DNA of 64,000 bases from Escherichia coli. Lineage in GTDB: Bacteria; Pseudomonadota; Gammaproteobacteria; Enterobacterales; Enterobacteriaceae. The notes under the pieces are model-generated. The model ran no database searches. It saw only the letters and a program-made list of their open reading frames with translations, and had not been told where the DNA came from. A program made the position numbers and the translations under genes. Numbering within the stretch: position 1 is the first letter of the stretch; each line of letters opens with the position of its first letter. The stretch lies in assembly GCF_003334785.1 (NCBI RefSeq), contig NZ_QOWV01000002.1. One strand, 5' to 3'. This document shows, in pieces, positions 25,310 through 61,866 of this stretch.

Positions 25310-25353
25310 AACCCTACCTTACTTGTGACTGATTTTTAAAAGAACCCGGGAAA

Positions 25354-25611
25354 TTACTCGAGTTCCGCCATCAGTTTAACCAGATGTTCAACCGCTTTCT
25401 GCTCGTCTTCGCCTTCTGCGGAGATAGTCACAACGGTACCTTGAGTCAGGCCCAGAGTCTGCAGTTTAAACAGGCTTTTCGCGCTGGCGCTTTTGCCGTT
25501 GGAAGTCACAGTAATTTCAGAAGTGAAGCCCTTAGCTTCTTTTACAAACTGGGCAGCAGGGCGGGTGTGCAGACCGTTCGGAGCGGTAATGGTAACTTCT
25601 TGCTGGAACAT
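25354..25611 (-). CDS. ptsH: Phosphocarrier protein HPr
   Basis: 85-aa ORF ([27 protein letters not shown]...), active-site His15 context. Confidence 0.97.
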
Positions 25612-39719: not shown

Positions 39720-39739
39720 TTAGCGTGTAAAAAGATAAA

Positions 39740-39769
39740 CGGCAGGAGATAATATCCTGCCGTTTTTTA
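39740..39769. terminator. Intrinsic terminator between convergent gltX and yfeD
   Basis: CGGCAGGA-GATAATA-TCCTGCCG followed by TTTTTT. Confidence 0.8.
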
Positions 39770-39770
39770 T

Positions 39771-40163
39771 TTATGCTGATTCGTCAATATCGAGACGGGC
39801 GAGGAAATTGCGAATTCCTTCACGTGACAAAAATTGCGCGACTTTTTCCTGCTCAATGTCTGTCATATTATCTATCGCGTTGATGATTTGTCGATACGCC
39901 GGGGCGCGTGCTCCAGGAGCGTATTCAGCAATTCTCTCTTCAGCTTCCATCAACATTGGTGTGTTATGGAAGGCTGGCGTGTTCTGAATAAACTCGCAAA
40001 CTTGCGTATCGACCAGAATAAGTCTGGCACGACCGCCTTTCACGCCGGGAAATTTTTCCGTTTTCCAGCCTTTTTCTCTGATCCAACGGTTAACAGTTTG
40101 TTTAGCCACACCGAGGCATTCAGCCAGTTCTTCGGTGGTCATTTTATTGCGTAATCTTTTCAT
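39771..40163 (-). CDS. yfeD: Small putative DNA-binding protein YfeD
   Basis: 130-aa ORF; paralogous to adjacent yfeC. Confidence 0.85.
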   Translation of the reverse strand: MKRLRNKMTTEELAECLGVAKQTVNRWIREKGWKTEKFPGVKGGRARLILVDTQVCEFIQNTPAFHNTPMLMEAEERIAEYAPGARAPAYRQIINAIDNMTDIEQEKVAQFLSREGIRNFLARLDIDESA

Positions 40164-40164
40164 A

Positions 40165-40509
40165 TTATTTGCTATCGCGAATCCCTAAGCGTTGTAACAA
40201 TCCGATAATCCCTTCCCGCAGAAGCAAGGATGTAAACTGTTTTTGTTCAACTGGCGTCATCTCTTTCGCCAGTGTCACCAGCAATACTTCAAGCGGCGCA
40301 TCACCAGAAAGGGCAGGCGCTTCTCCCTGACCTTCTGGACGTTCAGCATTGCGAATATATTCACGAACCTGTTCATTGACGTGAACCAGTCGGGCTTTGC
40401 CACCCTGGACGCCAGGTTTTGGTGACGTTGTCCAGCCTTCCTTGCGTACCCATTTATTAATGGTCTGGCGGCTATAGCCGGTCAGTCTGGCAAGTTCATC
40501 TGGTGTCAT
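40165..40509 (-). CDS. yfeC: Small putative DNA-binding protein YfeC
   Basis: 114 aa from ATG at 40509, which has an AAGGAGAGG RBS (MTPDELARLTGYSRQTINKWVRKEGW...). Confidence 0.85.
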   Translation of the reverse strand: MTPDELARLTGYSRQTINKWVRKEGWTTSPKPGVQGGKARLVHVNEQVREYIRNAERPEGQGEAPALSGDAPLEVLLVTLAKEMTPVEQKQFTSLLLREGIIGLLQRLGIRDSK

Positions 40510-40744
40510 CCTCTCCTTGAACATAACAATTCCCTGAATGTATGTGGGTCTATTAGTAGTTCATTTTATAACACCACTTTACAGGAAACCGTGACATGAA
40601 TAACTACTGAATGCGAGCGGTTTTCCAAAATTGTTCATTTGCCTGATTTTTCAGCGATTGAAACTACACGTTGCAATTTGCCGTTGACACATTCGGGCGG
40701 AATTCATATGATGCCGCCCGTCAACTCGACAAGCTTTACGTGAC

Positions 40745-40820
<76 letters not shown>

Positions 40821-40829
40821 AATTTCCAA

Positions 40830-40855
40830 CCCTCGCTGCAAAGCGGGGGTTTTTT
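40830..40855 (+). terminator. Intrinsic terminator after tRNA-Ala
   Basis: CCCTCGC-TGCAAA-GCGGGGG followed by TTTTTT. Confidence 0.7.
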
Positions 40856-41028
40856 GTCTCTGCTTTTTGCCGCTTTTGTAATACAGTCTACGTCCGGGTT
40901 AGTGCCGCCTGGTGAAAGCATCATTGGATGAAAAATCGGCAACAGGCTGGCCCCCTGTTTGCTTCGCGATGCGAATAAACTTATTATTTGTGTGCCTGAA
41001 AACCCCGATCAGTGAGAGTAGTGTACTC

Positions 41029-43218
41029 ATGTTTGTGGAGCATAACCTGATAAAAAATATCAAGATATTCACACTAGCGTTTACGCTCACCGTGGTACTT
41101 ATTCAGCTATCCCGTTTTATTTCGCCACTTGCCATTATCCATTCCAGTTATATCTTTCTGGCGTGGATGCCACTGTGCGTAATGCAGTCAATCTTGTTTA
41201 TCTTTGGCTGGCGCGGTGTCGTTCCCGTTTTATGCGGGATGTTTTGCACCAATCTGTGGAACTTTCATCTCTCTTTTTTACAGACTGCGGTCATGCTCGG
41301 TAGCCAGACGTTTGTCGTGTTGTGTGCCTGCGCAATATTACGCTGGCAGCTGGGGACGCGTTGGCGTTATGGATTGACCAGCCGATATGTCTGGCAACGT
41401 CTGTTCTGGCTTGGTTTGGTGACGCCGATCGGCATCAAATGCAGCATGTATCTTGTGGGGAGCTTCTTTGATTTCCCGCTAAAGATATCCACCTTTTTCG
41501 GCGATGCGGATGCCATTTTCACGGTCGTTGATTTGCTAAGCCTTTTCACCGCTGTGCTGATTTACAACATGCTTTTCTACTATCTCACTCGCATGATTGT
41601 AAGTCCCCACTTTGCGCAGATATTGTGGCGCAGGGATATCGCTCCGTCGTTGGGCAAAGAGAAACGCGCATTTACCTTAAGCTGGCTGGCAGCGTTAAGC
41701 GTGCTGCTACTTCTGTTGTGCACACCTTATGAAAACGACTTTATTGCCGGTTACCTGGTACCCGTTTTCTTCATCATCTTTACCCTCGGGGTCGGTAAGC
41801 TTCGCTATCCGTTTTTAAATCTCACCTGGGCTGTTTCAACGCTTTGCCTTCTGAATTACAACCAGAACTTTTTGCAAGGGGTGGAAACCGAATATTCGCT
41901 GGCATTTATTCTTGCGGTGCTGATTTCCTTTAGCGTTTGCCTGCTCTATATGGTGCGCATTTATCATCGCAGTGAATGGCTTAATCGCCGCTGGCATTTG
42001 CAGGCGCTGACAGATCCGTTAACGCTCCTACCCAACTTTCGTGCGTTGGAACAAGCGCCGGAGCAAGAGGCGGGCAAGAGTTTTTGCTGCCTGCGCATTG
42101 ATAATCTTGAGTTTATGAGTCGTCATTACGGCTTAATGATGCGCGTTCACTGTATCCGCTCAATTTGCCGTACGCTGCTGCCGTTGATGCAGGAAAACGA
42201 AAAGTTGTATCAATTGCCGGGTAGTGAACTGCTGTTAGTGCTGAGCGGGCCGGAAACGGAAGGGCGACTCCAGCATATGGTTAACATCCTGAATAGTCGG
42301 CAAATTCACTGGAACAATACCGGGCTGGATATGGGCTATGGTGCTGCCTGGGGGCGTTTTGATGGAAATCAGGAAACCCTGCAACCCTTGTTGGGGCAGT
42401 TAAGCTGGCTGGCGGAGCAATCCTGCGCACATCATCATGTGCTGGCGCTGGATAGCAGAGAGGAGATGGTTTCCGGGCAGACCACTAAACAGGTGCTATT
42501 GCTGAATACCATTCGCACGGCGTTAGATCAGGGTGATTTGCTGCTCTACGCCCAGCCAATTCGCAACAAAGAGGGTGAAGGTTATGATGAGATCCTCGCG
42601 CGACTGAAATATGACGGCGGCATTATGACCCCGGATAAGTTTCTGCCCCTTATTGCTCAGTTTAACCTTAGCGCGCGTTTTGATTTGCAAGTGCTGGAAT
42701 CCTTGTTGAAGTGGCTGGCAACACACCCTTGCGACAAAAAAGGACCGCGCTTTTCAGTCAATTTAATGCCGCTCACGCTGCTGCAAAAGAATATTGCCGG
42801 GCGGATTATTCGTCTGTTTAAGCGTTATCACATCTCCCCGCAGGCGGTCATTCTTGAGATCACCGAGGAGCAGGCGTTTTCTAACGCAGAAAGCAGCATG
42901 TACAACATCGAGCAGCTGCATAAGTTTGGTTTCCGGATTGCGATTGATGACTTTGGCACCGGATATGCCAACTACGAACGGTTAAAGCGTTTGCAGGCTG
43001 ATATCATCAAAATTGATGGCGTCTTTGTGAAAGATATTGTCACGAACACGCTGGATGCGATGATTGTGAGATCAATTACCGATCTGGCGAAAGCGAAGTC
43101 ATTGAGTGTGGTCGCGGAGTTTGTCGAGACGCAACAGCAGCAGGCGCTATTGCATAAGCTCGGGGTGCAATATCTGCAAGGGTATTTGATTGGTCGCCCG
43201 CAGCCATTAGCTGATTAA
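41029..43218 (+). CDS. yfeA: Membrane-anchored cyclic-di-GMP phosphodiesterase (N-terminal membrane sensor region, degenerate GGDEF, EAL domain)
   Basis: 729 aa from ATG at 41029 (MFVEHNLIKNIKIF...); EAL-domain region near C-terminus; the ORF track starts 39 codons upstream. Confidence 0.9.
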   Translation: MFVEHNLIKNIKIFTLAFTLTVVLIQLSRFISPLAIIHSSYIFLAWMPLCVMQSILFIFGWRGVVPVLCGMFCTNLWNFHLSFLQTAVMLGSQTFVVLCACAILRWQLGTRWRYGLTSRYVWQRLFWLGLVTPIGIKCSMYLVGSFFDFPLKISTFFGDADAIFTVVDLLSLFTAVLIYNMLFYYLTRMIVSPHFAQILWRRDIAPSLGKEKRAFTLSWLAALSVLLLLLCTPYENDFIAGYLVPVFFIIFTLGVGKLRYPFLNLTWAVSTLCLLNYNQNFLQGVETEYSLAFILAVLISFSVCLLYMVRIYHRSEWLNRRWHLQALTDPLTLLPNFRALEQAPEQEAGKSFCCLRIDNLEFMSRHYGLMMRVHCIRSICRTLLPLMQENEKLYQLPGSELLLVLSGPETEGRLQHMVNILNSRQIHWNNTGLDMGYGAAWGRFDGNQETLQPLLGQLSWLAEQSCAHHHVLALDSREEMVSGQTTKQVLLLNTIRTALDQGDLLLYAQPIRNKEGEGYDEILARLKYDGGIMTPDKFLPLIAQFNLSARFDLQVLESLLKWLATHPCDKKGPRFSVNLMPLTLLQKNIAGRIIRLFKRYHISPQAVILEITEEQAFSNAESSMYNIEQLHKFGFRIAIDDFGTGYANYERLKRLQADIIKIDGVFVKDIVTNTLDAMIVRSITDLAKAKSLSVVAEFVETQQQQALLHKLGVQYLQGYLIGRPQPLAD

Positions 43219-43225
43219 CAGGCGT

Positions 43226-43257
43226 AAAAAAACCGGGGAATTATCCCCGGCTTTTTT
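43226..43257. terminator. Bidirectional intrinsic terminator between convergent yfeA and nupC
   Basis: AAAAAAA-CCGGGGA-ATTA-TCCCCGG-C-TTTTTT. Confidence 0.8.
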
Positions 43258-47882: not shown

Positions 47883-48085
47883 GTTCTATTCCTTATGCGG
47901 GGTCAGATACTTAGTTTGCCCAGCTTGCAAAAAGGCATCGCTGCAATTGGTGCTGAAACGATAAAGTAATTGTGTGACCCAGATCGATATTTACAGGGAG
48001 CCTGCCTTTCCGGCGTTGTTGTTATGCCCCCAGGTATTTACAGTGTGAGAAAGAATTATTTTGACTTTAGCGGAGCAGTTGAAGA

Positions 48086-49051
48086 ATGACAAAGTATGCA
48101 TTAGTCGGTGATGTGGGCGGCACCAACGCACGTCTTGCTCTGTGTGATATTGCCAGTGGTGAAATCTCGCAGGCTAAGACCTATTCAGGGCTTGATTACC
48201 CCAGCCTCGAAGCGGTCATTCGCGTTTATCTTGAAGAACATAAGGTCGAGGTGAAAGACGGCTGTATTGCCATCGCTTGCCCAATTACCGGTGACTGGGT
48301 GGCGATGACCAACCATACCTGGGCGTTCTCAATTGCCGAAATGAAAAAGAATCTCGGTTTTAGCCATCTGGAAATTATTAACGATTTTACCGCTGTATCG
48401 ATGGCGATCCCGATGCTGAAAAAAGAGCATCTGATTCAGTTTGGTGGCGCAGAACCGGTCGAAGGTAAGCCTATTGCGGTTTACGGTGCCGGAACGGGGC
48501 TTGGGGTTGCGCATCTGGTCCATGTCGATAAGCGTTGGGTAAGCTTGCCAGGCGAAGGCGGTCACGTTGATTTTGCGCCGAATAGTGAAGAAGAGGCCAT
48601 TATCCTCGAAATATTGCGTGCGGAAATTGGTCATGTTTCGGCGGAGCGCGTGCTTTCTGGCCCTGGGCTGGTGAATTTGTATCGCGCAATTGTGAAAGCT
48701 GACAACCGCCTGCCAGAAAATCTCAAGCCAAAAGATATTACCGAACGCGCGCTGGCTGACAGCTGCACCGATTGCCGCCGCGCATTGTCGCTGTTTTGCG
48801 TCATTATGGGCCGTTTTGGCGGCAATCTGGCGCTCAATCTCGGGACATTTGGCGGCGTGTTTATTGCGGGCGGTATCGTGCCGCGCTTCCTTGAGTTCTT
48901 CAAAGCCTCCGGTTTCCGTGCCGCATTTGAAGATAAAGGGCGCTTTAAAGAATATGTCCATGATATTCCGGTGTATCTCATCGTCCATGACAATCCGGGC
49001 CTTCTCGGTTCCGGTGCACATTTACGCCAGACCTTAGGTCACATTCTGTAA
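48086..49051 (+). CDS. glk: Glucokinase
   Basis: 321-aa ORF ([35 protein letters not shown]...). Confidence 0.96.
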
Positions 49052-49269
49052 ATCCTTCCTTTTATATCGGGAGGTAACTCTCCCGATAATCTTTTAAATC
49101 ATACAGTTTATTCAATTTTTCTTTGTGTCCCCTCACAAGGTCGACCTGCGTCACACTTCCGTACAGCGGGATTAATTCTCCAGTAAATGCATTATTTGTC
49201 TGGTAACGGCGATTTGTTTTGCACGTTCATAATTTCACTCGTCAACTATCACTGAACGAGGAATTAACG

Positions 49270-49596
49270 ATGAGTAAGAAACTGATTGCCTTATGTGCCT
49301 GCCCGATGGGCCTGGCTCACACCTTTATGGCCGCTCAGGCGCTGGAAGAAGCGGCGGTAGAAGCCGGTTATGAAGTGAAAATTGAAACCCAGGGCGCGGA
49401 CGGTATCCAGAATCGCCTGACGGCGCAGGATATCGCCGAAGCGACCATCATCATCCACTCCGTGGCAGTTACCCCGGAAGATAACGAACGTTTCGAATCA
49501 CGCGACGTTTATGAAATCACTTTGCAGGACGCAATTAAAAACGCTGCGGGCATCATCAAAGAAATCGAAGAGATGATTGCCTCTGAACAACAGTAA
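49270..49596 (+). CDS. fryB: PTS fructose-like EIIB component
   Basis: 108 aa from ATG at 49270 (MSKKLIALCACPMGLAHTFMAAQALEEAA...), active-site Cys motif. Confidence 0.9.
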   Translation: MSKKLIALCACPMGLAHTFMAAQALEEAAVEAGYEVKIETQGADGIQNRLTAQDIAEATIIIHSVAVTPEDNERFESRDVYEITLQDAIKNAAGIIKEIEEMIASEQQ

Positions 49597-49617
49597 TATT
49601 CGACAGGGATAATTGTT

Positions 49618-50865
49618 ATGGCCATTAAAAAACGCAGTGCAACCGTTGTGCCTGGCGCATCCGGTGCGGCAGCGGCAGTTAAGAATCCGCAGGCCTCTAA
49701 AACCAGCTTCTGGGGTGAACTCCCGCAGCATGTGATGTCAGGGATTTCACGCATGGTGCCGACCTTAATTATGGGCGGTGTGATCCTCGCTTTCAGCCAG
49801 CTGATTGCTTATAGCTGGCTTAAAATTCCTGCTGAGATCGGCATCATGGATGCTCTTAATAGCGGGAAATTCTCCGGTTTCGACCTCTCCTTACTTAAAT
49901 TTGCCTGGCTGTCGCAGTCCTTCGGCGGCGTGTTGTTTGGTTTTGCCATTCCGATGTTTGCTGCTTTTGTGGCGAACTCTATCGGTGGCAAACTGGCGTT
50001 CCCGGCTGGTTTTATCGGCGGGTTGATGTCTACCCAGCCGACGCAACTGCTGAACTTCGATCCCAGCACTATGCAATGGGCGACCTCTTCGCCGGTGCCG
50101 TCCACCTTCATTGGTGCGCTGATTATTTCTATCGTTGCCGGTTACCTTGTGAAGTGGATGAACCAGAAAATCCAGTTACCGGATTTCCTGTTAGCGTTCA
50201 AAACCACATTTTTGCTCCCGATTCTTTCCGCCATTTTTGTCATGCTGGCGATGTACTACGTCATCACCCCCTTTGGTGGCTGGATCAACGGCGGTATCCG
50301 TACTGTGCTGACTGCCGCAGGTGAGAAGGGCGCGCTGATGTACGCAATGGGGATCGCCGCGGCGACAGCAATCGACCTTGGTGGCCCGATCAACAAAGCC
50401 GCAGGTTTTGTTGCCTTCAGCTTTACCACTGACCACGTATTACCGGTCACCGCTCGTTCTATCGCTATCGTTATTCCGCCGATTGGTCTGGGGCTGGCGA
50501 CCATTATCGACCGTCGTTTAACCGGCAAACGCCTGTTCAACGCTCAACTTTATCCGCAGGGTAAGACCGCCATGTTCCTGGCGTTTATGGGGATCAGTGA
50601 GGGTGCGATTCCGTTTGCGCTGGAAAGCCCCATCACCGCCATTCCGTCGTATATGGTCGGCGCTATTGTCGGCTCAACCGCCGCTGTCTGGCTGGGCGCA
50701 GTGCAATGGTTCCCGGAGTCCGCTATCTGGGCATGGCCGCTGGTCACTAACCTGGGCGTCTATATGGCGGGGATCGCGCTGGGGGCAGTCATAACTGCGC
50801 TGATGGTGGTGTTCCTGCGTCTGATGATGTTCCGTAAAGGCAAATTGTTAATCGATAGCCTGTAA
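49618..50865 (+). CDS. fryC: PTS fructose-like EIIC component
   Basis: 415-aa membrane ORF downstream of fryB. Confidence 0.9.
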
Positions 50866-50879
50866 GAAGGAAAATCCAG

Positions 50880-51965
50880 ATGACATTACTCGCTTCGCTG
50901 CGCGACTGGCTTAAGGCGCAACAACTGGATGCAGTGCTTCTCTCCTCACGGCAGAACAAACAGCCGCATCTGGGGATCTCCACCGGATCAGGTTATGTGG
51001 TGATTAGCCGTGAAAGTGCGCACATTCTGGTGGATTCGCGCTATTACGTTGAGGTGGAAGCCCGTGCGCAAGGCTACCAGCTGCATTTGCTTGACGCGAC
51101 GAACACGCTTACCACTATCGTCAATCAAATCATTGCCGATGAACAGTTGCAAACGCTCGGTTTTGAGGGCCAGCAGGTGAGTTGGGAAACCGCGCACCGC
51201 TGGCAGTCTGAACTCAATGCGAAACTGGTTAGCGCCACGCCGGATGTGCTGCGGCAAATCAAAACGCCAGAGGAGGTGGAGAAAATCCGCCTCGCCTGTG
51301 GGATTGCTGATCGCGGTGCAGAGCATATTCGCCGCTTTATTCAGGCGGGGATGAGCGAGCGCGAGATAGCCGCTGAACTGGAGTGGTTTATGCGCCAGCA
51401 GGGCGCAGAAAAAGCCTCTTTTGACACCATTGTCGCCAGTGGCTGGCGTGGGGCGCTGCCGCACGGCAAAGCCAGCGACAAGATTGTTGCAGCGGGCGAG
51501 TTTGTCACTCTCGATTTCGGTGCGCTGTATCAGGGCTACTGCTCTGATATGACGCGCACCTTGCTGGTGAATGGCGAAGGGGTGAGCGCCGAATCTCACC
51601 CGCTGTTTAACGTCTATCAAATTGTCCTGCAGGCACAGCTCGCAGCAATCTCCGCGATTCGCCCCGGCGTGCGCTGCCAGCAGGTTGACGATGCCGCGCG
51701 CCGGGTCATTACAGAAGCAGGTTATGGCGACTATTTCGGTCATAACACCGGTCACGCTATCGGCATTGAAGTTCATGAAGATCCGCGTTTTTCACCGCGG
51801 GACACCACGACGCTACAGCCAGGCATGTTACTGACCGTGGAGCCGGGGATTTATTTGCCAGGGCAAGGGGGCGTGCGCATCGAAGATGTTGTGCTGGTTA
51901 CCCCGCAAGGCGCAGAAGTGCTCTACGCCATGCCGAAAACAGTGTTGCTCACGGGAGAGGCATAA
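50880..51965 (+). CDS. ypdF: Xaa-Pro aminopeptidase (M24 family)
   Basis: 361-aa ORF with M24 metal-ligand region ([13 protein letters not shown]). Confidence 0.9.
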
Positions 51966-53002
51966 TGGATTTATCGCTATTAAAAGCGTTGAGCGAGGCA
52001 GATGCGATCGCCTCCTCGGAACAGGAAGTGCGGCAGATCCTGCTGGAAGAAGCGGATCGCCTGCAAAAAGAAGTGCGATTTGATGGTCTGGGATCGGTGC
52101 TGATCCGCCTGAATGAATCGACAGGTCCGAAGGTGATGATCTGTGCGCATATGGACGAAGTGGGATTTATGGTGCGCAGCATCTCCCGCGAAGGGGCGAT
52201 TGATGTGCTGCCGGTTGGCAACGTACGCATGGCTGCCCGCCAGCTGCAGCCGGTGCGCATCACCACCCGTGAAGAGTGCAAAATTCCAGGCCTGCTTGAC
52301 GGCGACCGGCAGGGGAATGACGTCAGCGCCATGCGCGTGGACATTGGTGCGCGCTCCTATGACGAAGTGATGCAGGCGGGAATTCGTCCCGGCGATCGCG
52401 TCACGTTTGATACCACTTTTCAGGTTCTCCCTCACCAGCGAGTGATGGGGAAAGCCTTTGATGACCGCCTCGGTTGCTATCTGCTGGTGACGTTACTGCG
52501 CGAACTGCACGACGCCGAACTACCTGCGGAAGTGTGGCTGGTGGCAAGTTCCAGCGAAGAGGTGGGATTACGCGGCGGGCAAACTGCCACCCGCGCGGTG
52601 TCGCCGGACGTCGCCATTGTGCTTGATACCGCCTGCTGGGCGAAAAACTTTGATTATGGCGCGGCTAACCATCGCCAGATTGGTAACGGGCCGATGCTGG
52701 TGTTAAGCGACAAGTCGCTGATTGCGCCGCCAAAACTTACCGCCTGGGTCGAAACCGTGGCGGCAGAAATTGGCGTGCCGTTGCAGGCAGATATGTTCAG
52801 CAACGGCGGCACGGACGGCGGGGCGGTGCACTTAACCGGCACCGGCGTGCCCACAGTGGTGATGGGGCCAGCAACCCGCCATGGACATTGCGCCGCATCG
52901 ATTGCCGATTGCCGCGACATTTTGCAGATGCAGCAACTTTTATCTGCCCTTATTCAACGTCTTACGCGTGAGACGGTTGTTCAACTGACGGATTTCAGAT
53001 GA
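51965..53002 (+). CDS. ypdE: Broad-specificity aminopeptidase (M42 family)
   Basis: 345-aa ORF; start overlaps ypdF stop (TAATG). Confidence 0.9.
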
Positions 53003-53026
53003 TCTCCTGATTAACCCGGAGCGGTT

Positions 53027-55522
53027 ATGTTAACGATTCAATTTCTCTGTCCTTTGCCTAACGGTCTACATGCTCGTCCGGCGTGGGAACTTAAAGAACA
53101 GTGCAGCCAGTGGCAAAGCGAAATCACTTTTATTAACCATCGCCAGAACGCAAAGGCAGATGCGAAAAGCTCGCTGGCGCTGATTGGCACCGGCACCCTA
53201 TTTAATGACAGTTGCAGCCTGAACATTAGCGGCAGCGATGAAGAGCAGGCGCGGCGCGTGCTGGAAGAGTACATCCAGGTGCGCTTTATCGACAGCGACA
53301 GCGTTCAGCCTACGCAGGCAGAACTGACGGCGCATCCGCTGCCGCGTTCATTAAGCCGCCTTAACCCGGATTTACTGTACGGCAATGTGCTGGCAAGCGG
53401 CGTCGGCGTGGGTACGCTGACCCTGTTACAAAGCGACAGCCTCGACAGTTATCGGGCAATCCCCGCCAGTGCGCAAGATTCCACCCGGCTGGAGCACAGC
53501 CTGGCAACGCTTGCCGAGCAACTGAACCAGCAATTGCGTGAGCGTGACGGCGAAAGCAAAACTATCCTCAGCGCCCATTTGTCGCTGATTCAGGATGATG
53601 AATTTGCAGGCAATATCCGTCGCCTGATGACAGAACAGCATCAGGGGCTGGGGGCGGCGATCATCAGCAATATGGAGCAGGTTTGCGCCAAACTTTCTGC
53701 CTCTGCCAGCGATTATCTGCGCGAACGTGTTAGCGACATTCGCGATATCAGCGAACAGTTGCTGCATATCACCTGGCCGGAACTGAAGCCGCGCAACAAG
53801 CTGGTGCTTGAAAAACCGACCATTCTGGTGGCTGAAGATTTAACCCCAAGCCAGTTTTTGAGCCTTGATTTGAAAAATCTTGCGGGCATGATTCTGGAGA
53901 AAACCGGGCGCACCTCGCATACACTGATTCTGGCCCGTGCCTCGGCGATCCCGGTACTGAGTGGCTTGCCGCTGGATGCGATTGCCCGTTATGCCGGGCA
54001 ACCTGCAGTGCTTGACGCCCAGTGCGGCGTGCTGGCGATTAACCCGAATGACGCGGTGAGCGGTTATTATCAGGTCGCGCAGACGCTGGCGGATAAACGC
54101 CAAAAACAACAGGCGCAGGCTGCCGCGCAGCTGGCCTATTCCCGTGATAACAAGCGTATTGATATTGCGGCGAATATCGGCACCGCTCTGGAAGCGCCAG
54201 GCGCGTTTGCCAACGGCGCGGAAGGTGTCGGGCTGTTCCGTACCGAAATGCTCTATATGGATCGCGACAGCGCGCCGGACGAGCAGGAGCAATTTGAAGC
54301 CTACCAGCAGGTGCTACTGGCGGCGGGCGACAAGCCGATTATCTTCCGCACGATGGACATCGGCGGCGATAAAAGCATTCCTTATCTGAATATTCCCCAG
54401 GAAGAGAACCCGTTCCTCGGCTATCGCGCGGTACGTATTTACCCGGAATTTGCTGGCCTGTTCCGCACTCAACTGCGGGCCATTTTGCGCGCCGCCAGTT
54501 TCGGCAACGCCCAGTTGATGATCCCGATGGTTCACAGCCTCGATCAGATCTTATGGGTGAAAGGCGAGATCCAAAAAGCGATCGTTGAGCTTAAGCGCGA
54601 TGGCCTGCGTCATGCAGAGACGATTACGCTTGGGATCATGGTGGAAGTTCCGTCGGTGTGCTACATCATCGACCACTTCTGCGATGAGGTCGATTTCTTC
54701 AGTATCGGCTCCAACGATATGACCCAGTATCTGTATGCGGTCGATCGTAATAACCCGCGCGTATCGCCGCTATATAACCCGATTACGCCATCGTTCCTGC
54801 GCATGTTGCAGCAAATAGTTACCACTGCGCATCAGCGGGGCAAATGGGTAGGCATTTGCGGTGAACTGGGCGGTGAAAGCCGTTATCTGCCGCTACTGCT
54901 TGGGCTGGGCCTGGATGAGCTGAGTATGAGTAGCCCGCGTATTCCGGCGGTGAAAAGCCAGCTTCGTCAACTGGATAGCGAGGCGTGTCGGGAACTGGCG
55001 CGTCAGGCATGTGAATGCCGCAGTGCGCAGGAAATTGAAGCGTTACTCACCGCCTTTACGCCGGAAGAAGACGTTCGCCCACTGCTGGCGCTGGAGAATA
55101 TCTTTGTTGATCAGGATTTTAGCAATAAAGAGCAGGCGATCCAGTTCCTGTGCGGCAACCTCGGCGTTAACGGGCGCACTGAACATCCGTTTGAGCTGGA
55201 AGAAGATGTCTGGCAGCGGGAAGAGATTGTTACCACCGGCGTTGGTTTTGGCGTAGCGATCCCGCACACCAAATCTCAGTGGATCCGTCATTCCAGTATC
55301 AGCATTGCCCGGCTGGCGAAACCGATTGGCTGGCAGTCAGAAATGGGCGAAGTCGAACTGGTGATCATGCTGACGCTGGGTGCTAACGAAGGGATGAATC
55401 ATGTGAAAGTCTTCTCGCAGCTGGCGCGTAAACTGGTGAATAAAAACTTCCGCCAGTCGTTGTTTGCCGCGCAAGATGCACAAAGTATCCTGACGCTGCT
55501 GGAAACAGAATTAACCTTCTGA
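53027..55522 (+). CDS. fryA: PTS multiphosphoryl transfer protein (HPr-like / enzyme I-like / EIIA-Fru-like fusion)
   Basis: 831-aa ORF; HPr-like N-terminus (LPNGLHARPA), EI-like core, EIIA-like C-terminus. Confidence 0.9.
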   Translation: MLTIQFLCPLPNGLHARPAWELKEQCSQWQSEITFINHRQNAKADAKSSLALIGTGTLFNDSCSLNISGSDEEQARRVLEEYIQVRFIDSDSVQPTQAELTAHPLPRSLSRLNPDLLYGNVLASGVGVGTLTLLQSDSLDSYRAIPASAQDSTRLEHSLATLAEQLNQQLRERDGESKTILSAHLSLIQDDEFAGNIRRLMTEQHQGLGAAIISNMEQVCAKLSASASDYLRERVSDIRDISEQLLHITWPELKPRNKLVLEKPTILVAEDLTPSQFLSLDLKNLAGMILEKTGRTSHTLILARASAIPVLSGLPLDAIARYAGQPAVLDAQCGVLAINPNDAVSGYYQVAQTLADKRQKQQAQAAAQLAYSRDNKRIDIAANIGTALEAPGAFANGAEGVGLFRTEMLYMDRDSAPDEQEQFEAYQQVLLAAGDKPIIFRTMDIGGDKSIPYLNIPQEENPFLGYRAVRIYPEFAGLFRTQLRAILRAASFGNAQLMIPMVHSLDQILWVKGEIQKAIVELKRDGLRHAETITLGIMVEVPSVCYIIDHFCDEVDFFSIGSNDMTQYLYAVDRNNPRVSPLYNPITPSFLRMLQQIVTTAHQRGKWVGICGELGGESRYLPLLLGLGLDELSMSSPRIPAVKSQLRQLDSEACRELARQACECRSAQEIEALLTAFTPEEDVRPLLALENIFVDQDFSNKEQAIQFLCGNLGVNGRTEHPFELEEDVWQREEIVTTGVGFGVAIPHTKSQWIRHSSISIARLAKPIGWQSEMGEVELVIMLTLGANEGMNHVKVFSQLARKLVNKNFRQSLFAAQDAQSILTLLETELTF

Positions 55523-55524
55523 CG

Positions 55525-56382
55525 TTAGCCCTGAAAACGGGCGCTGTACTCTCCCGGCGTCAGACCAAACTGACGCCGGAAAACGCGACAAAAATAGTCG
55601 CTATCCGGAAAACCGCAACGCTGTGCCACTTCATGAATTGACAGATGATATTTCTGCAAAATCATCCTCGCCTTCGCCATTCGCACCCAACGCACATACT
55701 CGATAAAACGCATCGTTCCATGCTGAGCAAACAGTTTTGACAGATGATTGGGCGTGATATTAAAAAACTGCGCCACGCTCTCGCGGGTGAGCGGCTGGGC
55801 ATAATTATCCTGAACCCAGTTACAAATGCTGTGATAGAGAAAATCGCCGCGCGGCTGCGAATTGCCCGGCGGCATATTCACCACGCTACGGCAAAGATGC
55901 AGCAAACTTAACACCAGCGGCTGAATGATATTTTGCTCCAGCGGCGAACGGCTAAGATGGGTGAGGGCGGTAAGCATCGCTTCACCTTCACCGCGTTGCA
56001 GGCTGGGAAGCTGGATCTGGCGAGCAGGATGCAACAACGACGTGGTGCGGCTATCGTAAAACGATAACCCAAGCCAGGTCGGAGCGAACACCAGGCTTAA
56101 CAGCATCACCGGTTTGTTGTTGACCGGTAAATTAGCCGCGCGCGCCGGAATAAACAGCATTTCTCCTTCCACCAAACGTTGCTGCTTTGCTTCCAGCAGA
56201 TTGCCGTATTCGCCGCGCAGCACGATATCCAGACGGGGAAAATCAATACATAAACTGCCCACCGGCAACGAGGCAGGCTGGCTGGCAAACCAGACGCGCC
56301 CCAGTAGTTGCGGGTTAAGCACCAGGCCGCTGAACAGATCGGCGAAAAATTGTTGATCGGCGGGCAAGCCTGGTGCTTTCAT
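55525..56382 (-). CDS. ypdC: AraC-family transcriptional regulator YpdC
   Basis: 285-aa ORF with C-terminal AraC HTH; convergent with fryA (2-bp gap). Confidence 0.88.
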   Translation of the reverse strand: MKAPGLPADQQFFADLFSGLVLNPQLLGRVWFASQPASLPVGSLCIDFPRLDIVLRGEYGNLLEAKQQRLVEGEMLFIPARAANLPVNNKPVMLLSLVFAPTWLGLSFYDSRTTSLLHPARQIQLPSLQRGEGEAMLTALTHLSRSPLEQNIIQPLVLSLLHLCRSVVNMPPGNSQPRGDFLYHSICNWVQDNYAQPLTRESVAQFFNITPNHLSKLFAQHGTMRFIEYVRWVRMAKARMILQKYHLSIHEVAQRCGFPDSDYFCRVFRRQFGLTPGEYSARFQG

Positions 56383-56394
56383 GAAAGTTCCCGA

Positions 56395-57129
56395 TTAAAG
56401 ATGCATTAACTGGCGAAATTCTTTCACTTTGCTGCGGCTGACCGGCACTTCAAAATCCAGATCTTTCAGTCGCAGAATGTAGGTGTTATTAAACCACGGT
56501 TCGATTTCGCGTATTTTGTTCAGATTGACACAAAATGAGCGATGGCAGCGGAAAAAATGCGACGGCGGCAGTTTGCTGCAAAATTCGGTAATGTTCATCG
56601 GCATTACGTAGGATTCACGCCGCGTATAGACAAAGGTCATTTTCTCGTGCGCTTCGGCGTAATAGATATCGTTAATTGGCGTGACGATTATTCGCTCATC
56701 TTTCACCAGATTAATGGTGTCATTCTCACGCGTTACCGTCGCGGCAGGCGTACTGCTGGTCTGCTGTTGTTGCCAGGCCGCTTCCAGTTTTTGCAGCATC
56801 CCGGTAATACGTGACTCCTGATACGGTTTGAGAATGTAGTCAAACGCCTCCAGTTCAAACGCTTCTACCGCATGTTCTTTCCACGCGGTGATGAACACAA
56901 TAAACGGTTTATGGGCGAACTGGCTGATGTTTTGCGCCAGCAACACGCCATCCAGCGACGGAATATTGATATCCAGAAAAATGGCGTCGACGCGGTTATG
57001 CTGCAAAAACTTCAACACGTCCAGACCGTCGTCAAAGGTGCCGACAATCTCCATCTGGCTGTGCTCTTTAATTAGCCAGCTCAGTTCCTGTTGTGCCAGG
57101 AATTCGTCTTCAACAATGATGACTTTCAC
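56395..57129 (-). CDS. ypdB: LytTR-family response regulator YpdB
   Basis: 244 aa from GTG at 57129 (VKVIIVEDEFLAQQEL...); receiver domain plus LytTR DNA-binding domain; the ORF track starts 6 codons upstream at TTG, overlapping the ypdA stop. Confidence 0.88.
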   Translation of the reverse strand: MKVIIVEDEFLAQQELSWLIKEHSQMEIVGTFDDGLDVLKFLQHNRVDAIFLDINIPSLDGVLLAQNISQFAHKPFIVFITAWKEHAVEAFELEAFDYILKPYQESRITGMLQKLEAAWQQQQTSSTPAATVTRENDTINLVKDERIIVTPINDIYYAEAHEKMTFVYTRRESYVMPMNITEFCSKLPPSHFFRCHRSFCVNLNKIREIEPWFNNTYILRLKDLDFEVPVSRSKVKEFRQLMHL

Positions 57130-57143
57130 AATATCACTCCGGC

Positions 57144-58841
57144 TCAAAGCAATAACGTAGCCTGTGAGGCGACTGGGGTGCGTTGGTTAGGAATGTAAAA
57201 CGCAATTTCCGTCCCCGGCTCCAGGCGGCGGATATGCAGCCCCTCGCCATACAATAACTTCACGCGATGATGGACATTCAGCAGGCCAATTTTATTGCCC
57301 GGCATTTCATTCGCTTCGACCCGCTCAATCACCTTTGGATCGATGCCGTGCCCGGTATCTCGCACCGCAATGCGTACCCGATTTCCGCACTCTGCAACGC
57401 TGATGGTGACAACGCCTTTACCTTTGCAAGGCTGAATACCGTGGACAATGGCGTTCTCCACCAACGGCTGGATCAGCAGGCTGGGAATGCAGCAATTCAC
57501 CTCTTCATCAATATCATAGATAACCGTCAGCTTGTCACCAAAGCGGGCCTGCTCAATGGCAATATAGTCTTTAATTTGATACAGCTCTTTTTTGATATCG
57601 ATTTGCTCATCGTCTTTTAATTCAATGTTATAGCGCAGATAACGCGACAGATTAAAGATCAACTGGCGAGCGGTATCCGGATTCAGACGGATTGACGATG
57701 AAATAGCGTTCAGAGCGTTAAACAGAAAATGGGGATTAATTTTGCTTTGCAGGGCGCGAAGCTCTGCCTTATTTGCCATTTCACGTAGCTGCTCGGCGCG
57801 TGAAACCTCCAGTTGCGTGGAGATGATTTGCGACAGACCGACCGCCATTTCCTGTAATGACGAGGTGATCTGATGCGCGTGGCAGTAGTAAATTTTCAGC
57901 GTTCCGGTCACGACCCCTTTCTCCCACAATGGGATCACCAGCATGGAATGAATCTCTGGTGTGCGGTGGGCTTCATCATTGTTTTTAATGATGATTTTTC
58001 CGTAATTCATCGCCTGACGGGTAGTCGGGCTAATGAAGTCATCGCCATTCTGATAGTTATGTTCACCCACGCCAACATAGGCCAGCACATGATCGGTATT
58101 AGTAATCGCCACCGCATCGGCGTGAATGTCATCGCGGATAATTTCGCAGACCTTGCGTAATGACTCGCTATTGACATGGCGAAACAGCGGTAGCGTTTTG
58201 TTGGCGATATCCAGCGCCAGCTTGGCCTGCCGCGCGGCGCTGGCCTCTTTTTCGCCCTCAACGCTTTGCACCAGAAGCACAATAAAGCCGATACAGACGC
58301 TACCGAGGATCATTGGAATGCCGATTTTAGAGACGATATCGATCCCCAACGCGGTAGTTGGTGCCCAGACAATTACCAGAATCATGGTCAACGTCTCACA
58401 CAACATGCCGCCGAGAATACCGACGCGCCAGCGCTGTGCTTTGGGGATTTTCAGGTTGATCCAGCCCGATATACAACCCGCCAGAATGCTGGTGATAAAG
58501 CAGGGGATCGCCGTCACGCCGCCGATATCAATTAAATACCGGTGAATACCCGCAATCACGCCGGTAATGATGCCTACCCACGGGCCAAACAGAATCCCGC
58601 CGGACATCACCGCGATAATACGTACGTTCACCAGCGAGCCTTCTACGGGAACGCCGGACCAGGTGCTGAACAGGGCGAACAGCGAGAAAATGGCGGTAAC
58701 GGCGAGCAATTCTTTTGGGGAGTGCGCCGACTTGTGCAACAGTTCGCGAAACAGGCGGATACGGATGAGAAAGAACAGGCAGATAAGCATTAACGCTGCC
58801 CGATCGAAGACCGCCAGCAGCATGTTGAATATTTCGTGCAC
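57144..58841 (-). CDS. ypdA: LytS-type sensor histidine kinase YpdA
   Basis: 565-aa ORF; N-terminal polytopic membrane domain, GAF-like region, histidine kinase core (H-box ...PHFLFNALN...). Confidence 0.9.
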
Positions 58842-59216
58842 GGGTGACTCTGAATAAGGATTAAACCTCTATGATAGGTAACCTGAAGGCTGATGACCAG
58901 CAGGCCGTTTTTGAGGAAAAACCACAATTTTAAAAGGGGATTGATAGATAAATGGTGTATTAGCAATGCATCTCTTGATAATGCACTTCTGGTTAGTAAA
59001 TTTATTGAAATTATTATGTTAATAAAATGAGTGGTAATTTTCTTGTTAGCGCAGATAAATTTCCTGTTTTTAAAGCAGAGTTCCTCATTTAACGTCATTA
59101 ATAAAATGTTCTAAAACGCTGGACAGACAGAAATTAATCAGGCTATTTTCAAAACAGCCACCATCGTGGCAGCGTCGCTCGGACGGTCCGGGCGCTAACG
59201 TTAATCTGAGGAAATT

Positions 59217-60455
59217 ATGGCTGACACTCGCCCTGAACGTCGCTTTACGCGCATTGATCGTCTCCCGCCCTACGTTTTTAACATCACCGCTGAACTGAAA
59301 ATGGCTGCGCGTCGGCGCGGCGAAGATATTATCGATTTCAGCATGGGTAACCCGGACGGTGCGACTCCGCCGCATATCGTCGAAAAATTATGTACTGTGG
59401 CCCAGCGCCCGGACACGCATGGTTACTCCACTTCACGCGGCATTCCGCGGTTACGTCGCGCCATTTCCCGCTGGTATCAGGATCGCTACGACGTTGAAAT
59501 CGACCCGGAATCAGAAGCCATCGTCACTATTGGTTCGAAAGAGGGCCTGGCGCATCTGATGCTGGCGACGCTGGATCATGGTGACACGGTGCTGGTGCCG
59601 AATCCAAGTTACCCGATCCATATTTATGGCGCGGTGATTGCCGGGGCGCAGGTACGCTCAGTGCCGCTGGTGGAAGGTGTCGATTTCTTCAACGAACTGG
59701 AGCGAGCCATTCGTGAAAGTTATCCGAAACCGAAGATGATGATCCTCGGCTTCCCGTCAAACCCAACCGCGCAATGCGTGGAACTGGAGTTCTTCGAAAA
59801 AGTAGTGGCGCTGGCGAAACGCTACGATGTGCTGGTGGTCCATGACCTGGCCTATGCCGATATCGTCTACGATGGCTGGAAAGCGCCGTCAATTATGCAG
59901 GTACCGGGTGCACGCGATGTGGCAGTCGAGTTCTTTACGCTGTCGAAAAGCTACAACATGGCGGGCTGGCGTATCGGCTTTATGGTTGGCAACAAAACGC
60001 TGGTCAGCGCCCTGGCTCGTATTAAAAGCTATCACGATTACGGCACCTTTACGCCGTTGCAGGTGGCGGCGATTGCGGCGCTGGAGGGCGATCAACAGTG
60101 CGTGCGCGACATTGCCGAACAGTACAAACGCCGCCGTGATGTATTGGTTAAAGGGCTGCATGAAGCGGGCTGGATGGTTGAAATGCCGAAGGCTTCGATG
60201 TATGTCTGGGCGAAAATCCCGGAACCATATGCGGCCATGGGATCGCTGGAATTTGCCAAGAAGCTCCTTAACGAAGCGAAGGTTTGTGTCTCGCCGGGGA
60301 TTGGCTTTGGCGACTATGGTGATACGCATGTTCGCTTTGCACTGATTGAAAACCGCGACCGTATTCGTCAGGCCATCAGAGGGATTAAAGCGATGTTCCG
60401 TGCCGACGGTTTACTACCCGCCAGCAGCAAACATATTCACGAAAACGCGGAATAA
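59217..60455 (+). CDS. alaC: Glutamate-pyruvate aminotransferase AlaC
   Basis: 412-aa ORF; class I aminotransferase fold with PLP-lysine context ([12 protein letters not shown]). Confidence 0.93.
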
Positions 60456-60519
60456 ACACCGTCGTCAGAAATGCAAACAGGAGCCTGATGGCTCCTGTTT
60501 TTCATTGCACAGTTTGCTT

Positions 60520-60591
60520 TTAGATCATCAGGGCAAAAGTACCGGCCCAAACGATGACCATAAAAGAAATGCCCATAAAGAAATATTTCAC
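60520..60591 (-). CDS. ypdK: Small membrane protein YpdK (23 aa)
   Basis: Minus-strand frame read by eye: (GTG)KYFFMGISFMVIVWAGTFALMI-stop; start codon here is GTG; lies between alaC and lpxP. Confidence 0.6.
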   Translation of the reverse strand: MKYFFMGISFMVIVWAGTFALMI

Positions 60592-60876
60592 TTTACATCT
60601 CTCCGCGTAATTACTGTTACGCCTGAATGACTTCATTACACCTGATACAGTGAGTTGACACCGGGCAAAGCGACCTTAAAAGCCCTGTATTTTACCGTGG
60701 GCATCACCCCAGAATTCTGAGCTAAACTGCTCGAGACGGCGCTAATGTACGCCTAAAACTGAAACGAGACAAGAGGCATTTTCTTATTTACTTTTAGTAA
60801 CTTACAAGTGTCTCATATCGGCGACAGTTTAATTTCTGACGGTAATAATTAGATATTCAGCGAAGGAAAAACCTTA

Positions 60877-60912
60877 AGAAAAAAGCCATAAAAACCATGA
60901 GGTTATTATGGC
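60877..60912 (-). terminator. Intrinsic terminator downstream of lpxP
   Basis: Minus strand reads GCCATAATAACCTCATGGTTTTTATGGC followed by TTTTTTCT. Confidence 0.65.
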
Positions 60913-60945
60913 CGATTTGAGGAGGGAAAGAGTAAGAGCAGTTTG

Positions 60946-61866
60946 TTAAATGTACAACGACGATTCTCCCACCGGGCGCGTTTTAAAGCGACGGTGGATC
61001 CAGAGGTACTGCTCCGGTGCGCGCATGATCTCTTTCTCGATAATCTTGTTCATATAGGCAGCGGCTTGATTTTCATCTGTCGGGTAGCCTTCCATCTCTG
61101 GGGTGATGAACAAACGATATCCGCTGTAATCCGTTTTTCTTACCATCGTTACGGTCAACATGGCTGCGCCAGAGAGACGGGAGAGAACATAGGTGCCATT
61201 GGTTGTGGCGACATTTTCCACCGCAAAGAACGGCGCGAAGGAGCTGCCTTTACGACCATAATCCTGATCGGGAGCAAACCATACCGCTTCACCTTTCTTC
61301 AGTGCACCGACAATGCCGCGCAGATTATTTCTGCCGATCATCGCTTTGTTAGAGCGCATGCGCCCACGGGTCTGCACCCATTCCATCAGCTGATTATTAT
61401 GTGGACGATAGGTAGCCATCATTGGTTGGCACAGTCCCATCACGCGGCCGCCCAGTTCCAGCGACATAAAATGGACGCCGACAACCATTACGCCGCGATT
61501 TTGCATTTGTGCGCGTTTAAGGTTATCCAACCCTTCAACATCAAACCATTTACGTACGCGACTGTCGGGCCAGAACCATGCCATGCCGGTTTCTACCAGC
61601 GCCATGCCGAGTGAACGAAAGTTTTCGGCAATCATCTTCTCGCGTTCTTCCGCAGAATGCTGCGGGAAACAAAGTTCCAGGTTTTTACGGGCGATAGATT
61701 CACGACGTTTCAGGAATGGTCGCGCCATTGCGCCAATACGCGTGCCGAGAAAGCAGAGAACAGGATAAGGAAGCTGTACCCAAAGCCAGAGTACACCAAG
61801 CCCAAACCATGTGAGCCAGTAGCGAGGATGTAGAAACTCGCGGGAAAATTTGCATTGTGGAAACAT
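60946..61866 (-). CDS. lpxP: Lipid A biosynthesis palmitoleoyltransferase (cold-induced)
   Basis: 306 aa from ATG at 61866 (MFPQCKFSREFLHPRYWLTWFGLGVLWLW...). Confidence 0.93.
   Translation of the reverse strand: MFPQCKFSREFLHPRYWLTWFGLGVLWLWVQLPYPVLCFLGTRIGAMARPFLKRRESIARKNLELCFPQHSAEEREKMIAENFRSLGMALVETGMAWFWPDSRVRKWFDVEGLDNLKRAQMQNRGVMVVGVHFMSLELGGRVMGLCQPMMATYRPHNNQLMEWVQTRGRMRSNKAMIGRNNLRGIVGALKKGEAVWFAPDQDYGRKGSSFAPFFAVENVATTNGTYVLSRLSGAAMLTVTMVRKTDYSGYRLFITPEMEGYPTDENQAAAYMNKIIEKEIMRAPEQYLWIHRRFKTRPVGESSLYI

Follow-up and report, generated by a model that had tools for sequence, protein, structure and literature searches.

Relation of the fry operon to described systems

Among the described systems closest to the fry operon of Escherichia coli is the phosphotransferase system (PTS) for 2-O-alpha-mannosyl-D-glycerate, MngA/MngB, in which MngB, an enzyme of glycoside hydrolase family 38 (GH38), hydrolyses the 6-phospho-mannoside supplied by its PTS (PMC2815779). 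We examined the fry operon in a stretch of 64,000 nucleotides (nt) of E. coli DNA (NCBI RefSeq assembly GCF_003334785.1, contig NZ_QOWV01000002.1; hereafter the window), where it lies with its neighbours ypdC, ypdB and ypdA at positions 49270-58841. Genome comparison suggests that fryB-fryC-ypdF-ypdE-fryA and the regulator gene ypdC constitute one horizontally mobile cassette. The Mng and Fry systems are alike in being fructose-family PTS (TC 4.A.2) and in having a cytosolic hydrolase gene directly after the permease gene; that the hydrolase cleaves the phosphorylated import product is a further likeness, which for the Fry peptidases we propose by analogy. Unlike MngA/MngB, Fry comprises two metallo-aminopeptidases and no glycosidase, separate enzyme IIB (EIIB) and enzyme IIC (EIIC) proteins, a fusion of its own of enzyme I (EI), HPr and EIIA, and an AraC-type in place of a GntR-type regulator.

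A sugar PTS is likewise paired with an M42 'aminopeptidase/endoglucanase-like' protein in frvABXR (FrvX) and sgcABCEQX (SgcX) of E. coli, an organism with three M42 proteins (PMC3511314), and the sgc operon was still called putative in 2026 (PMC13343008). The second-best NCBIfam match of YpdE is another E. coli M42 model. Both operons lie outside the window and, to our knowledge, neither has an M24 partner or an EI/HPr fusion.

The fry operon has long been annotated in E. coli K-12 and is among the few complete E. coli PTS without a known substrate. It is no new kind of element: positions 49270-58841 correspond to the already known and annotated chromosomal locus fryB-fryC-ypdF-ypdE-fryA with convergent ypdC-ypdB-ypdA, several E. 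coli chromosomes carry the 9.6-kb stretch at 100% identity, and 5425 of the 5426 complete genomes of the species contain the locus, nearly always in single copy. The operon belongs to the core genome of the species. In the uropathogenic E. coli strain UTI89, ypdE contributes to colonisation of the bladder, a deletion mutant having been outcompeted in mouse bladder with a competitive index of 0.30 (PMC8767336). What is new here, at the level of sequence comparison, is the unity of the cassette with ypdC, a conserved promoter layout, an old link between transporter and peptidase, the existence of GH38 sister operons and the mark of purifying selection. The RefSeq annotation lists fryB, fryC, ypdF, ypdE, a ptsP-like gene (fryA), ypdC, ypdB and ypdA, with glk upstream and alaC downstream, and all genes named in an earlier note on this DNA, made from the sequence alone, were found in place and without internal stops:

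49270-49596, + strand: fryB, fructose-family PTS EIIB (TIGR00829)
49618-50865, + strand: fryC, PTS EIIC membrane permease
50880-51965, + strand: ypdF, M24B metallopeptidase (Xaa-Pro / Met aminopeptidase; NF007310)
51965-53002, + strand: ypdE, M42 (TET-type) aminopeptidase (NF007421)
53027-55522, + strand: fryA, fused HPr-EI-EIIA(Fru) multiphosphoryl transfer protein
55525-56382, - strand: ypdC, AraC-family regulator, modelled with two domains
56395-57129, - strand: ypdB, LytTR partner of the LytTR/LytS two-component system
57144-58841, - strand: ypdA, LytS partner of the LytTR/LytS two-component system

The tight spacing on one strand (fryB-fryC 21 nt, fryC-ypdF 14 nt, ypdE-fryA 24 nt) and the gene order conserved across taxa mark the first five genes as a single operon. 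Two points of layout in the earlier note were borne out, namely the translational coupling of ypdF and ypdE, which overlap by one base at a TAATG junction, and the convergence of ypdC with fryA, the stop codons of which are 2 nt apart. A start of fryB at TTG 49219, given by a mechanical list of open reading frames (ORFs), was rejected, ATG 49270 being the RefSeq start and conserved in all orthologues.

Distribution of the fry genes and their neighbours

One genome per species was scanned with a YpdF alignment, followed by tblastn searches with ten proteins of the E. coli neighbourhood. The five genes follow one another as fryB-fryC-ypdF-ypdE-fryA in all Enterobacterales loci, so far as the sequence of each extends; these loci include Escherichia, Citrobacter, Salmonella arizonae and diarizonae, Kluyvera, Enterobacter, Lelliottia, Superficieibacter, Pluralibacter, Huaxiibacter, Buttiauxella, Pseudocitrobacter, a Serratia and Hafnia. 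Within the order Enterobacterales the genes occupy at least three chromosomal sites, being flanked by glk/alaC in Escherichia, Citrobacter and Salmonella, by dcuC-rna in Enterobacter and relatives, and by sbcCD/sbmC in Hafnia. Because the same order recurs amid differing flanks, we infer that the five operon genes and ypdC move as a unit.

The membership of ypdC in this unit was assessed from the 36 Enterobacterales loci with enough sequence after fryA. In 33 of these, ypdC is convergent with fryA and mostly abuts it, whereas ypdAB lies next to fry in only 13; ypdC without ypdAB was observed in 20 loci, including those of Salmonella arizonae and diarizonae, Enterobacter, Hafnia and Serratia. 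Since ypdC is co-inherited with fry and ypdAB is not, ypdC appears to belong with the operon and ypdAB to be an unrelated neighbour. This corrects the grouping of neighbours in the earlier note, where ypdC and the sensor pair were named together.

Fry genes without adjacent ypdC or ypdAB were observed in Kluyvera ascorbata, Citrobacter amalonaticus and Citrobacter sp. MGH106 (loci L007, L012 and L013). In Citrobacter amalonaticus S646, which carries one of these ypdC-less loci, fryA is split into ORFs of 493 and 389 amino acids (aa) (L012 12146-14631). An Enteroba­cteriaceae-type fry-ypdC cassette was also present on a contig labelled 'Chryseobacterium sp. 18061', with identities and coordinates that match those found in 'Citrobacter sp. 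18056', which belongs to the same project (L044, L046); the Chryseobacterium assembly is probably mislabelled or contaminated.

Comparison of E. coli with Citrobacter, Salmonella and Pseudocitrobacter yielded ratios of non-synonymous to synonymous substitution (dN/dS) of 0.02-0.12 for all cassette genes, similar to those of glk and alaC and with dS saturated, and of 0.03-0.05 for fryC; against Enterobacter, the values for cassette genes reach up to 0.16. The fry operon is silent in the laboratory yet maintained by purifying selection.

Peptidase-linked and mannosidase-linked relatives

The YpdF-anchored scan also identified Firmicute loci in Clostridioides difficile, two Clostridium species, Anaerosolibacter and Breznakia, with identities to E. 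coli of 70% for FryB, 53-62% for FryC and 39-48% for YpdF. The Firmicute layout consists of a PepV/Sapep-type M20 dipeptidase, a PRD-type regulator, EIIA, EIIB, EIIC, an M24 peptidase and a PatB-family C-S lyase; a divergent manA accompanies the C. difficile locus, and Breznakia lacks the upstream M20 dipeptidase and encodes a YpdE orthologue (score 445 versus an equivalog cut-off of 412). A metagenome contig carries RidA, AlaDH, RpiR, a fused EIIABC, M24, M20 and a PatB-like gene. Anchoring on YpdF restricted this first scan to M24-containing loci, which was corrected by a second search that started from FryC: with its C. difficile homologue as query, 1009 matches were obtained at E<1e-40, and among the contexts sampled the peptidase layout recurred in Romboutsia, Clostridium OS1-26 and Acetonema. 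In Rahnella bruchi (L086 5253-9323), a LacI-type regulator, an M20 dipeptidase, EIIB, EIIC and M24 occur without EIIA, M42, PatB or the EI fusion. The Rahnella bruchi EIIC is 66% identical to the Firmicute type versus 53% to E. coli FryC.

Adjacency of EIIB, EIIC and M24 genes extends over Clostridioides difficile, Clostridium, Romboutsia, Anaerosolibacter, Acetonema, Breznakia, Rahnella and the metagenome contig. The regulators and phosphorelay parts of these M24-linked loci vary, most of the loci encode a further peptidase of clan MH, either M20 or M42 (none was seen in Romboutsia, the contig of which starts at the regulator gene), and a PatB-family lyase is present in all those listed but Rahnella. 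Approximately 35 further M24 genes, at similar identity and from genera such as Paenibacillus and Thermoanaerobacter, are not accompanied by a PTS, and in a neighbour-joining M24 tree without support values the PTS-linked proteins group with YpdF and the unlinked ones fall outside. Spiroplasma sequences were omitted from this tree, as TGA encodes Trp in that genus and translation with the standard code had shortened them. Together, these findings suggest that the link between the transporter and the M24 peptidase is old and no accident.

Combinations of an M20 dipeptidase with a PatB lyase are known elsewhere to trim and then beta-eliminate a dipeptide conjugate (PMC11742315, PMC7385124). In possessing a PepV-type M20 dipeptidase and a PatB C-S lyase, the Firmicute Fry-like loci resemble the Cys-Gly-3M3SH pathway of Staphylococcus hominis, unlike the E. 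coli cassette, which has neither. The S. hominis conjugate contains no sugar and enters through a peptide transporter, not a PTS. For the Firmicute version, including that of Clostridioides difficile, the M20 dipeptidase and PatB lyase would narrow the chemistry of the aglycone.

A second group of relatives was identified in Streptococcus suis, Pseudoleptotrichia, a member of the Tissierellales and Tepidimicrobium, where EIIA, EIIB and EIIC are followed by a GH38 alpha-mannosidase; two of these four operons also include a mannose-6-phosphate isomerase. These Firmicute and Fusobacterial operons share the three-protein permease architecture of Fry and differ from the peptidase-linked ones in having the alpha-mannosidase downstream and no peptidases or pyridoxal phosphate (PLP)-dependent lyase. 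Their EIICs are approximately 65% identical to the peptidase-linked Firmicute EIICs and 52-55% identical to FryC. In an EIIC tree with a fused MngA-like EIIABC with GH38 (about 41-44% identity) as the outgroup, the two Firmicute types are interleaved, and Enterobacterial FryC together with Breznakia forms their sister group. This pattern would be consistent with one permease type having been joined with interchangeable hydrolase modules directly downstream.

Putative fryB promoter and the AraC-family protein YpdC

When the 260 bp preceding fryB in 19 Enterobacterales loci with differing upstream genes were aligned, four conserved blocks stood out from a non-alignable background. These blocks and the upstream boundary of the region are:

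49065-49088, + strand: glk intrinsic terminator, a 10-bp stem followed by a T-run (terminator scan)
49140-49155, + strand: candidate cyclic AMP (cAMP)-CRP site GTCGA-N6-TCACA, mean conservation 0.76 versus 0.37 further upstream
49171-49187, + strand: direct repeat 1, ATTAATTCTCCAGTAAA, candidate distal YpdC half-site, conserved across genera including Hafnia and Serratia
49191-49207, + strand: direct repeat 2, ATTATTTGTCTGGTAAC, candidate proximal half-site, mean conservation 0.82
49228-49233, + strand: -10 hexamer CATAAT, conservation 0.95, almost invariant in 19 genera or species

Because the glk terminator marks the upstream boundary, fry needs a promoter of its own. The right half of the CRP-like site, TCACA, is perfect and invariant. 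The repeats ATTAATTCTCCAGTAAA and ATTATTTGTCTGGTAAC are 17 bp each and lie 20 bp apart, ATTATTTGTCTGGTAAC overlapping the place where a -35 element would be expected; the motif ATYAWTNNTCYRGNWAA has 4 matches in the window against 0.68 expected, two of them at fryB and the others approximately 6 and 23 kb upstream. No recognisable -35 element was found for the fryB promoter, nor any consensus sigma-70 promoter in 49098-49269, and a -10 element that has no -35 is typical of promoters that depend on an activator. With a transcription start near 49241, the proximal repeat would span -50 to -34 and the CRP-like site would be centred at about -93.5. The araBAD promoter has the same layout of CRP site and activator repeats. 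Promoters of this type and the putative fryB promoter are alike in their two direct-repeat half-sites, the proximal one over the -35, in a weak or absent -35, in a CRP site near -93.5, for fry a candidate, and in a two-domain regulator, as which YpdC is modelled; fry differs in the spacing of its candidate repeats (20 bp versus 21 bp) and in having the regulator gene convergent at the 3' end of the operon and not divergent.

YpdC, which has been counted among the uncharacterised AraC-family regulators (PMC4797297), carries a C-terminal double helix-turn-helix (HTH) at residues 191-281 (HTH_18 E=2.9e-20, HTH_AraC E=6.7e-10), and Foldseek matched it to the DNA-binding domains of AraC, MarA and SoxS with TM scores of 0.8-0.9. 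An AlphaFold model (mean confidence, pLDDT, 83.8) predicts a beta-rich N-terminal domain (residues 30-126) in addition to the double HTH and matches Rns, CsvR and ToxT over the full length (E about 1e-8); the matches to the regulatory domains of RhaR and BgaR are weak (E 5e-3 to 4e-2). No Pfam family, AraC_binding included, matches residues 1-180 of YpdC, a further difference from the araBAD type. In the regulation that we propose, YpdC with its ligand would bind the direct repeats at 49171-49207, and cAMP-CRP would bind 49140-49155 and, with YpdC, activate the fryB promoter. The fry operon has also been recorded as mildly Cpx-responsive in a stress-regulon table (PMC2731931).

Phosphorelay proteins and peptidases

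The complete phosphorelay claimed in the earlier note was recovered, with EI, HPr and EIIA in FryA, EIIB in FryB, EIIC in FryC, and all phosphorylation motifs intact. FryB was assigned to the fructose-family EIIB proteins by TIGR00829 (92.2 bits versus a cut-off of 76.85), with Cys11 in the motif CPMGLAHT. FryC falls marginally under the cut-off of TIGR01427 (157.0 bits versus 157.55) and reaches no curated equivalog; its closest relatives are Fry-type and GH38-linked EIICs, and its family is narrow, with 54 clusters at E<1e-30 among 1.84 billion representatives. FryA has the domain order HPr, EI, EIIA-2 (Pfam PTS-HPr, PEP-utilisers_N, PEP-utilizers, PEP-utilizers_C, PTS_EIIA_2). Its EI domain scores 505.9 bits against 341.7 for TIGR01417, with His298 in GRTSH and the motif FSIGSNDM at residue 558, and its EIIA domain scores 138.4 bits against 103.5 for TIGR00848 (PF00359 E=4.4e-31), with His747 in GVAIPHT. 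The HPr domain was detected by Pfam PTS-HPr at residues 6-84 (E=6.6e-14), with His15 in GLHARP, and is divergent, as its NCBIfam TIGR01003 score is below the cut-off (39.5 versus 47.9). As read from these domains and motifs, the cassette encodes a self-contained relay dependent on phosphoenolpyruvate (PEP), in which the phosphate of PEP would pass from His298 of the FryA EI domain to HPr His15, EIIA His747 and FryB Cys11, and on to the substrate crossing FryC. The same window contains the general genes ptsI and ptsH (23588-25581, - strand), at a distance of approximately 28 kb upstream of fryA; the identity of FryA to their products is 39% for its EI domain (PtsI) and 33% for its HPr domain (HPr).

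YpdF scores 819 bits with NF007310 (cut-off 393), placing it in M24B, the Xaa-Pro peptidases with a pita-bread fold, and matches PDB entry 5CNX, named 'Aminopeptidase YpdF', with one residue differing; its metal ligands D212, D223, H292, E321 and E335 are invariant across all M24 sequences compared. YpdE scores 681 bits with the M42 model NF007421 (cut-off 412) and matches PDB entry 1YLO, the Shigella orthologue, with E=1.7e-225. The motifs HMDE, FDDR, SSEEVG, VLD and HGH, which we take to be the carriers of the M42 metal ligands, are conserved in YpdE of E. coli, Hafnia and Breznakia. By these signatures, the cassette encodes two catalytically intact cytosolic metallo-aminopeptidases. Six YpdF positions (27, 82, 97, 178, 242 and 289) are specific to the PTS-linked M24 clade, Enterobacterial and Firmicute members alike. 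They include the invariant Lys27 and Lys178 as well as Asn289, which lies between the active-site histidines 288 and 292 of the HxxxH motif and is replaced by Gly or Ser in unlinked homologues.

Shortened YpdF variants of 304-349 aa occur in the protein database for some E. coli, Shigella dysenteriae and E. albertii, and in Escherichia sp. MOD1-EC7003 (L002 11565) just 46% of ypdE was matched. These shortened and partial genes point to occasional lineage-specific decay.

Proposed function and alternative explanations

That the substrate and the rationale of the operon were still to be explained, as the earlier note had stated, agrees with the literature, a 2017 paper describing fryA as having no assigned function and the FryABC substrate as unknown (PMC5364489). 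Full-text searches of the accessible literature found no substrate, inducer or regulator for fryA/B/C or ypdE/F/C. A 2026 Enterobacter transcriptome paper is not informative in this respect, as fryB appears in it solely as a mis-assigned step of GDP-sugar synthesis, and fryA is absent from the main text of a paper on Salmonella and muskmelon. Our comparison supplies a candidate operator and activator, YpdC, and, from the operons with GH38 and mannose-6-phosphate isomerase, a candidate sugar class of mannoside type.

The reading to which we give a slight preference, on comparative grounds, is that of an inducible catabolic cassette with YpdC as its regulator and peptidases that act on an imported conjugate. 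A hexose joined to an amino acid or short peptide would enter phosphorylated on the sugar, after which YpdF (Xaa-Pro and Met-Xaa bonds) and YpdE (broad specificity) would strip off the amino-acid part. By analogy, the role of the peptidases would be that of the GH38 mannosidase in the sister operons and of MngB for mannosylglycerate: to judge from the position that they share with the GH38 module and from their persistence across phyla, they most likely cleave the import product. That the hexose is of mannoside type, most likely an alpha-mannoside, is a more tentative suggestion. If true, the conjugate hypothesis would add a nutrient class to PTS biology and might help to explain the pairing of M42 peptidases with PTS in frv and sgc.

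Several points weigh against the conjugate hypothesis. Zheng et al. 2005 reportedly found that YpdE and YpdF hydrolyse ordinary unmodified peptides in vitro, and both could be generic peptidases. The E. coli cassette includes no enzyme for the bond between sugar and side chain, neither a PatB lyase nor a glycosidase. Sugar specificity is not readable from the EIIC tree because GH38- and peptidase-linked members interleave, and the tree is a neighbour-joining one without bootstrap. As regards YpdC and its operator, the left half of the CRP-like site agrees with the consensus at only 2 of 5 positions, three loci possess fry without ypdC, and E. coli ypdC follows ypdB by 12 nt and may be co-transcribed with ypdAB. 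No peaks were obtained for YpdC by ChIP-exo (chromatin immunoprecipitation with exonuclease) in 2021 (PMC8464067), possibly due to an absent inducer.

The first of these points also favours a simpler explanation, in which the sugar imported by FryABC is an ordinary one, for instance fructose or mannose, and YpdE and YpdF are general aminopeptidases that share its promoter for carbon and nitrogen scavenging, with no chemical link between the two activities. YpdE is known as an aminopeptidase from the work of Zheng et al. 2005 as cited in PMC3511314, an enzyme that would split a sugar-aglycone bond is missing from the E. coli operon, and two other E. coli PTS operons, including the putative sgc (PMC13343008), likewise carry M42 peptidases. 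Set against this are the persistence of EIIC-M24 adjacency across phyla despite exchanged regulators, EIIA/EI parts and second peptidase, the peptidases' occupation of the place held by a product-cleaving GH38 in the sister operons, and the fact that the PTS-linked M24 proteins are a clade of their own with specific residues; we regard the explanation as rather unlikely. More improbable is a mainly regulatory phosphorelay, like PTS-Ntr or DhaM, that would sense PEP/pyruvate or a ligand and control the peptidases, YpdC or others, in place of bulk nutrient uptake. FryA indeed unites several domains in one fused protein, resembles DhaM in part and duplicates the general EI and HPr encoded approximately 28 kb away, a pyruvate sensor adjoins fry, and an in-frame fryA deletion improved growth on lysogeny broth (LB) plates after prolonged LB culture (PMC5364489), but a full-length EIIC permease is kept under strong purifying selection (dN/dS 0.03-0.05), the Firmicute versions consist of EIIA/B/C alone with PRD regulators typical of catabolic PTS operons, and ypdAB is not co-inherited.

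Control of fry by YpdA/YpdB in response to pyruvate, with YpdC as a member of their operon, is suggested by the direct adjacency of ypdA-ypdB-ypdC to fryA and by the E. coli gaps of 14 and 12 nt, a published regulon table treating the three genes as one unit. We consider it very unlikely and rejected ypdAB as the fry regulator, since ypdAB is not inherited with fry: among the 33 loci where ypdC accompanies fry, 20 lack ypdAB. YpdA/YpdB is a described pyruvate-responsive system (PMC5552118), and a YpdB binding sequence upstream of yhjX has been used in a search for YpdB targets. At the fryB promoter the conserved repeats are AraC-type, and the LytTR pattern was not seen. LytTR sites are 9-bp repeats 12-13 bp apart. 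Least credible of all is that the operon is a decaying cryptic remnant without current function. Its silence or lack of assignment in laboratory studies, the truncated ypdF or ypdE of some E. coli, Shigella dysenteriae, E. albertii and an Escherichia sp., and the split fryA of one Citrobacter amalonaticus genome would fit such a remnant; however, the dN/dS values of 0.02-0.12 and the near-universal presence in E. coli largely refute it, and intact frames and catalytic residues, conserved promoter elements and the in-vivo fitness defect of the ypdE mutant stand against it as well.

Within the conjugate hypothesis, a more specific and speculative extension, which we consider improbable as it stands, is that Fry-type cassettes, Enterobacterial and Firmicute, are an undescribed salvage route for small glyco-amino acids or glycopeptides. 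Candidate substrates would be O-mannosyl-Ser/Thr or S-linked hexosyl-Cys peptides set free from glycoproteins of fungi, bacteria or the host. A mannoside-type PTS would import the conjugate and phosphorylate its sugar; M24, M42 and M20 exopeptidases would then trim it to a single glyco-amino acid, with Lys27 and Lys178 of YpdF binding the sugar phosphate; and in Firmicutes the PatB-family PLP enzyme would beta-eliminate the sugar phosphate to give pyruvate and ammonia, so that deglycosylation would be performed by a lyase and not by a glycosidase. Bacillithiol (Cys-GlcN-malate) and Amadori or Heyns compounds were also considered as substrates and are unsupported, the loci being without a deglycase or GlcN-malate glycosidase.

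Further features of the locus and window

The near-zero spacing of the fryA and ypdC stop codons is kept across genera, from 2 nt in E. coli (55520-55527) to a 4-nt overlap of the ORFs in Hafnia (L035 14655-14658), and because the convergent stop codons nearly touch, the fryA and ypdC transcripts must overlap. No terminator was found between the two genes. Citrobacter species are exceptions, with a fryA-ypdC spacer of 300-380 nt or an inserted ORF of 334 aa. A scan of 48000-61000 for structured RNAs with Rfam gave no match.

Upstream of approximately 43 kb the collinearity of the window with E. coli C is lost, and annotation coordinates of that strain were for this reason not directly transferred: at 37900-43250 the tRNA array differs, and the IS421 copy of E. 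coli C has no alignment to the window. On the other side of the locus, the 375-bp intergenic region between ypdA and alaC (58842-59216) is AT-rich, with several matches to promoter-like and terminator-like patterns on the two strands.

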